Source: Dictyostelium discoideum (taxonomy: Eukaryota). Taken from it: a stretch of DNA of 64,000 nucleotides. Below are positions 55,384 through 55,628 of the stretch, piece after piece. A model generated the notes under the pieces. That model searched no databases, was not told the origin of the DNA, and was given only the letters and a program-made list of their open reading frames with translations. The position numbers and the translations under genes are program-made. Position 1 is the first letter of the stretch. Every line of letters starts with the position of its first letter. The stretch spans positions 2,336,001 through 2,400,000 of the forward strand of contig CM000151.3 of assembly GCA_000004695.1 (NCBI GenBank), in the 5' to 3' direction.

Positions 55384-55628
55384 ACCCGTCCAACAGTCTA
55401 AAAAAACTGTCGAACTTTTGCATACATTTTTTTAATATGGTGTTTGTGGACTATATTTTTTTTGAAAAATAAAATCTTGAAGAGAAGAGGATTTCATTGG
55501 TATTTTCCAAAATAAAAATGGATTAGAAATAAGCTTTCTTTACCTAAATTTATAATTACCAAAAAAATTAAAAAAGTGTCTGAATTCTTTTTGAAATTAA
55601 TTCATTTTTTTTTTTGTTGGACGGGTGA
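55384..55628. mobile_element. MITE-like non-autonomous element (about 245 bp) bounded by perfect 13-bp GC-rich terminal inverted repeats CACCCGTCCAACA / TGTTGGACGGGTG.
   Basis: ttacacccgtccaacagtc... at 55384 and ...ttttgttggacgggtgatatg at 55616-55628. Interior is AT-rich and non-coding. It lies between two paralogous Cys-rich genes. Flanks ...ttatta | ... | atatgt give no clean target-site duplication. Confidence 0.5.

Follow-up and report, generated by a model that had tools for sequence, protein, structure and literature searches.

The 245-bp segment that separates two genes of unknown function in Dictyostelium discoideum is probably the fossil remnant of a small, MITE-like DNA transposon of the non-autonomous cut-and-paste kind (with a target-site duplication of hAT-type length), inserted a single time and vertically inherited since. 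This reading is supported for the locus itself and is strengthened by the target-site duplication that we recovered from orthologous copies of the element. Inverted repeats that coincide exactly with the ends of the insertion, an 8-bp duplication, empty orthologous sites, small size and the lack of an open reading frame (ORF) together make up the anatomy of a non-autonomous cut-and-paste transposon. We infer that the mechanism was transposase-mediated and that the affiliation of the element is hAT-like.

The element was examined within a stretch of 64 kb of D. discoideum DNA, which we will refer to as the window. The initial annotation had described a 245-bp AT-rich, non-coding segment between two genes, bounded by complementary, GC-rich ends of 13 bp. 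All of this was borne out: the two 13-mers are exact reverse complements of each other, the element is closed by stop codons in all six frames (with no callable ORF of at least 30 aa), and its length is 245 bp, although the coordinates originally given (55384-55628) were shifted by +1 relative to the true ones (Table 1). The 13/13 pairing is found both in the window and in the copy of another D. discoideum assembly (ACTFIT). Exact pairing stops at 13 bp, and further inside the element only A-runs correspond. We found no third exact occurrence of the 13-mer in the 64-kb window, where ~0.1 matches are expected by chance; in dinucleotide shuffles the mean was 0.10 matches, and three or more were seen in 0 of 100. 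When up to two mismatches were allowed, the sole extra match in the window was an unpaired one at 36162. The window also holds three further clusters of perfect inverted repeats (at least 11 bp with at least 5 G/C, arms at most ~110 bp apart), with 28 qualifying 11-mer inverted pairs observed vs. ~0.8 in block shuffles.

The element starts 93 bp past the stop codon of gene 1 (54435-55289), a 284-aa ORF of a secreted, Cys-rich protein of GPI type, and it ends 201 bp upstream of the ATG (55829) of gene 2, its smaller neighbour. The ORF of gene 1 is identical to DDB_G0272586/DDB_G0273989 of D. discoideum AX4, while gene 2 is DDB_G0272891/DDB_G0273987, which places the window in the region of chromosome 2 that is duplicated in AX4.

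Table 1 Coordinates of the element and related features in the window, intergenic distances (stop codon of gene 1 to start of gene 2) at the orthologous loci and sequence identity between two D. discoideum assemblies.
Feature	Position or source	Strand	Details
Whole inserted element	55383..55627	.	245 bp, AT-rich, non-coding; block absent in sister genomes
Left terminal inverted repeat CACCCGTCCAACA	55383..55395	+	perfect 13/13 pairing with right end
Right terminal inverted repeat	55615..55627	-	TGTTGGACGGGTG as read on + strand
Left duplication copy	55375..55382	.	ATTTATTA in window, one mismatch vs. ATATATTA in ACTFIW/ACTFIR
Right junction	55628..55635	.	second duplication copy missing in window; 8-bp gap vs. 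ACTFIW/ACTFIR
Stem CCCGAACC / GGTTCGGG	21720-27 / 21741-48		rnrB-tkt spacer
Intergenic distance, AX4	window		540 bp
Intergenic distance, D. discoideum ACTFIT	L001		540 bp
Intergenic distance, D. discoideum ACTFIW	L023		500 bp
Intergenic distance, D. cf. discoideum ACTFIZ	L002		300 bp
Intergenic distance, D. cf. discoideum ACTFIY	L022		284 bp
Intergenic distance, D. dimigraforme	L003		274 bp
Intergenic distance, D. citrinum	L004		352 bp
Intergenic distance, D. firmibasis	L005		284 bp
Gene 1 coding sequence	AX4 vs. ACTFIW		97.3% identity
Flanking intergenic DNA	AX4 vs. ACTFIW		94-95.5% identity
Element	AX4 vs. ACTFIW		88% identity, 44 gap positions

Orthologous loci were taken from 10 assemblies via the flanking protein, with the window counted as AX4. 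The element is present at the site in four D. discoideum assemblies (AX4, ACTFIT, ACTFIW and ACTFIR) and precisely absent from two assemblies of D. cf. discoideum (ACTFIZ and ACTFIY), from D. citrinum, from D. dimigraforme and from D. firmibasis. The search for empty sites that had been proposed on the basis of the window thus returned an unoccupied orthologous site in five sister genomes. In the alignments the whole 245 bp are missing from the sister species as a single block, and the boundaries of the insertion relative to the empty sites coincide with the ends of the inverted repeats. At the level of single nucleotides, the window reads tttatta, then the element, then atatgtataatt, vs. gttatta followed immediately by aaatgtataatt in ACTFIZ. 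The copy in ACTFIT is identical to that of the window, and those in ACTFIW and ACTFIR are diverged (207 and 204 bp, respectively). In a neighbour-joining tree of the surrounding 6.8 kb, the four carriers form one clade (AX4 with ACTFIT, ACTFIW with ACTFIR), outside which ACTFIY, ACTFIZ, D. citrinum and D. firmibasis branch off in succession. With all carriers in one clade and the non-carriers of the tree outside it, the distribution is explained by one insertion on the D. discoideum branch, later than the separation from the D. cf. discoideum lineages. The empty site of ACTFIY consists of a T-run followed by AAGGAATAATTATTTATG and is ~6 nt longer than that of ACTFIZ; we inspected it as a possible excision footprint and could recognise no clear pair of duplication remnants there. 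In the annotation of ACTFIR (L024 4001-5968), genes 1 and 2 are joined across the element into one model of 452 aa, which is probably an annotation artefact.

The initial annotation had reported no clean target-site duplication. This is correct for the AX4 copy itself but not for ACTFIW and ACTFIR, where a search of the orthologous copies revealed a perfect 8-bp direct repeat, ATATATTA, abutting both inverted repeats. Specifically, the site in these two lineages, the more divergent ones of D. discoideum, reads tttttttttATATATTA, then the element from CACCCCGTCCAAC to TGTTGGAC(T/G)GGTG, then ATATATTAttatgtaat. This repeat is a target-site duplication of hAT-like length. The empty sites hold one related copy of the target (GTTATTA in ACTFIZ). 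A non-homopolymer, AT-only 8-mer recurs at such spacing with a chance of ~0.008 (i.e., at ~0.8% of positions in these loci), a figure that becomes 2-3% of positions when homopolymers are allowed; the support comes from two related lineages and hence counts as one ancestral event (p ~0.01). In the window, the right flank ATATGTATAATT runs straight into the sequence that lies past the single target copy of ACTFIZ (AAATGTATAATT), and once the element is subtracted, the filled AX4 site is as long as the empty ACTFIZ site, leaving no duplication in AX4. The right-hand copy thus appears to have been lost later through an 8-bp deletion in the lineage of AX4 and ACTFIT, and it is because of this loss that the duplication is not seen in the window.

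Taken as a sequence of events, the proposed history would begin with a transposase, supplied in trans, recognising the 13-bp terminal inverted repeats. The element would then have been inserted into an AT-rich spacer downstream of a T-run, and the staggered cut, once filled in, would have produced the 8-bp duplication. The insertion would have been a single event in the lineage of D. discoideum sensu stricto, followed by vertical inheritance and neutral decay.

The many dispersed copies that a family leaves in a genome are the defining property of a MITE family, and BLASTN and fuzzy searches detected no extra copy in the 64-kb window plus ~145 kb of other dictyostelid loci (~209 kb in all); matches there were confined to the orthologous copies and low-complexity noise. 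Likewise, no autonomous partner with these ends was found in the dictyostelid loci searched. The paired inverted-repeat pattern gave 0 matches in JGI metagenome contigs and IMG/VR. The single-end pattern gave 13 metagenome matches, all of them unpaired and located in contigs of 39-63% GC, and we therefore consider them chance matches. A literature search on Dictyostelium MITEs, the termini of thug and DDT, the gene identifiers and the 13-mer yielded no usable sequence information. It is unlikely, in our estimation, that the element belongs to an unrecognised, multi-copy D. discoideum MITE family with 8-bp duplications and a transposase from outside Tdd, DDT and thug. If it did, this would amount to a new DNA-transposon lineage in a genome whose transposases reportedly resemble no known superfamily, and would offer markers whose presence or absence tells D. 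discoideum apart from its cryptic cf. discoideum relatives.

Across strains, the element diverges about twice as fast as the flanking intergenic DNA (Table 1), the overall difference between AX4 and ACTFIW across the compared 6.8-kb region being 5.7%. The left inverted repeat of ACTFIW and ACTFIR reads CACCCCGTCCAACT (one extra C and one A>T), and the right one is unchanged in ACTFIR and reads TGTTGGACTGGTG (G>T) in ACTFIW; none of these changes is compensated on the partner arm. The element is decaying neutrally, without constraint, and the copy is old: it predates the split of AX4 and ACTFIW and shows no sign of present mobility. An altogether different reading, in which the segment encodes a structured non-coding RNA and the 13-bp repeats pair its 5' and 3' ends as a closing stem, could appeal to the many unannotated non-coding RNAs of Dictyostelium and to the fact that both strands fold better than shuffled sequences (z = -4.3 and -4.0), although this signal is driven mainly by the terminal stem. 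That stem, however, accumulates an uncompensated 1-nt insertion, an A>T and a G>T among the three D. discoideum versions, and RNAalifold on these three sequences returned an unfavourable covariation term (+2.9), with the terminal stem supported only at its outer bases and 1 of 47 predicted pairs maintained by changes in both partners (from three sequences only). Neither Rfam (at the gathering score or at E<=10) nor a tRNA scan gave any match, the upstream sequence has no DUSE motif on either strand, and transcription by Pol III would end at any of several T-runs, which both strands contain. The absence of the element from five sister genomes and its faster evolution than the flanks also speak against an RNA gene. 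Fast divergence, uncompensated breaks in the stem and the lack of an Rfam match thus make a structured RNA very unlikely. A cis-regulatory module of the downstream gene, with the ends as two inverted copies of a GC-rich transcription-factor site, is very unlikely as well: C/A-rich boxes are typical of developmental promoters in Dictyostelium and the element lies 201 bp upstream of the DDB_G0272891 ATG, but the GC-rich sites are absent from sister species that retain gene 2, they are mutated in ACTFIW and ACTFIR, and the conserved motifs all lie outside the element. These promoter-proximal motifs (TTGGTGTGGTTATTT and ATACCCC) are situated downstream of the insertion, nearer to gene 2, and are common to the empty-site genomes ACTFIY and ACTFIZ.

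Two further explanations accept the insertion but question its nature. The inserted DNA could be a one-off without any transposon, for instance filler DNA at a double-strand break or a local rearrangement, with the repeats at its ends being coincidental. In keeping with this, the locus is single-copy in the ~209 kb of dictyostelid sequence searched, no partner element was found and the AX4 copy has no duplication; against it, a GC-rich 13/13 inverted repeat placed by chance exactly at the insertion boundaries is very unlikely in a genome of ~22% GC, and the 8-bp direct repeat adjoins both ends in two lineages. We regard such an event as improbable. Somewhat more room, though still short of an even chance by a clear distance, should be left for the element being a fragment or short derivative of a catalogued D. 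discoideum DNA transposon (DDT-S, thug-S or thug-T) and hence nothing new. Catalogued DNA transposons do exist in this species and some are short and non-autonomous (PMC5633606), but the 13-mer was not found in the literature searched.

A second site, a palindrome at 21719-21755 between rnrB and tkt, had been proposed as a footprint or a solo pair of inverted repeats from the same family. The palindrome is real, although it is better drawn as the stem given in Table 1, and its proposed origin has to be abandoned. It shares only ACACCCG..CCA with the inverted repeat of the element, and its GC-rich stem CCGAACC/GGTTCGG (window 21717-21751; L019 and L020 in the other two species) is kept in D. 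citrinum and D. firmibasis; the loop varies. Specifically, the orthologous rnrB-tkt spacer reads ACCCGAACCA-13 nt-TGTTCGGGATT in D. citrinum and GCCGAACC-14 nt-GGTTCGGGATTAAT at the same position in D. firmibasis. Neither species has ever had the element at the main locus, yet both retain the hairpin, which is therefore no footprint or solo inverted-repeat pair of this family. A conserved stretch, TGTTTTGCA.TGAG, follows the hairpin, which has no Rfam match and may represent either an RNA hairpin or a palindrome bound by a protein.

Two other hairpins in the window were recorded independently of the element. The larger one (2381-2388 and 2470-2581) is near-perfect, with arms of ~44 bp, a folding energy of -72.9 kcal/mol and z = -15.7. 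A DUSE-like motif, TCCCATAA, precedes it by ~80 nt and is one of only three WCCCAYAA matches in the window. The hairpin has no counterpart in Rfam, and its arm sequence was not found in the literature searched. We consider it a candidate gene for a non-coding RNA or a miRNA precursor. The other hairpin (5942-6027) has perfect arms of 30 bp around an A-rich loop (z = -10.7) and is directly followed by a small hairpin and a T-run (6032-6066); possible readings are a miRNA-like precursor and an inverted duplication of recent origin.

Returning to the transposon reading of the 245-bp segment, the element is an ordinary genomic fossil, i.e., a decaying insertion between two genes of unknown function, and matters little alone. 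Apart from lengthening by ~245 bp the spacer that separates the 3' end of DDB_G0272586 from the DDB_G0272891 promoter, it is probably without function. It may nonetheless be used as a lineage marker, being present in 4 of 4 D. discoideum assemblies (with the window as AX4) and absent from 2 of 2 of D. cf. discoideum, and it suggests that the recent ancestors of D. discoideum harboured an active DNA transposon with 8-bp duplications. It also illustrates how the reference strain alone can hide a target-site duplication which a comparison between strains recovers.

How does the element compare with known mobile elements? It is not a solo LTR because its termini are CA...TG rather than 5'-TG...CA-3'; its duplication is 8 bp rather than 4-6 bp. 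The DNA transposons catalogued in D. discoideum are Tdd, DDT and thug, which account for 1.5% of the genome (PMC5633606). With DDT and thug repeats the element has in common its host and the fact that these catalogued DNA transposon families include short members. Tdd-4 and Tdd-5 (Ginger2) have TGTNR termini, 5-bp duplications, inverted repeats of 50-180 bp and an integrase-like transposase (PMC2836005). They share with the element the host and a cut-and-paste mode with terminal inverted repeats, but the element differs in its terminus (CAC), its duplication (8 bp) and its repeats (13 bp). The initial annotation had tentatively taken its ends to be unlike those of Tdd; by the criteria of terminus, duplication length and repeat length (PMC2836005) a Tdd element is ruled out.

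In the sister genome ACTFIZ (D. cf. discoideum), a DNA transposon of PIF/Harbinger type lies ~5 kb from the orthologous site. It comprises a 434-aa DDE_Tnp_4 ORF with subterminal repeats of the AATAACTC type (L002 90-1394, minus strand, and 1470-1560); these repeats have no similarity to the 13-mer. Harbinger duplications are 3-bp TWA and not 8-bp. With unrelated ends and the wrong duplication length, this gene was rejected as a partner of the element. Its place is taken in D. discoideum by an intact first amine-oxidase paralogue, and all that is left of that paralogue in L002 is a 172-aa fragment. In the window, the amine-oxidase paralogues are arranged in tandem (49207-50925 and 52325-53998; ~91% identical), and the number of intact copies varies among sister species. 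Given that the transposases of D. discoideum reportedly resemble no known transposases (PMC5633606), the DDE_Tnp_4 element of L002 may be of interest in its own right.

The closest comparison is with hAT-type MITEs. The element has the 8-bp duplication of hAT transposons, and its 13-bp repeats fit their range of ~10-25 bp; it lacks their 5'-YARNG terminus. Inverted repeats of ~10-25 bp, a 5'-YARNG terminus and an 8-bp duplication characterise hAT elements, and duplications of ~8 bp are also made by P, Merlin, some MULE, Novosib and Zisupton elements. The differences are that the terminus of the element is CACCC vs. the usual YARNG and that the duplication ATATATTA fits nTnnnnAn at position 2 only. 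What the element shares with hAT-type MITEs is a size of ~200-250 bp, a non-coding and AT-rich interior, inverted repeats of 13 bp, an 8-bp duplication and an intergenic site close to genes.
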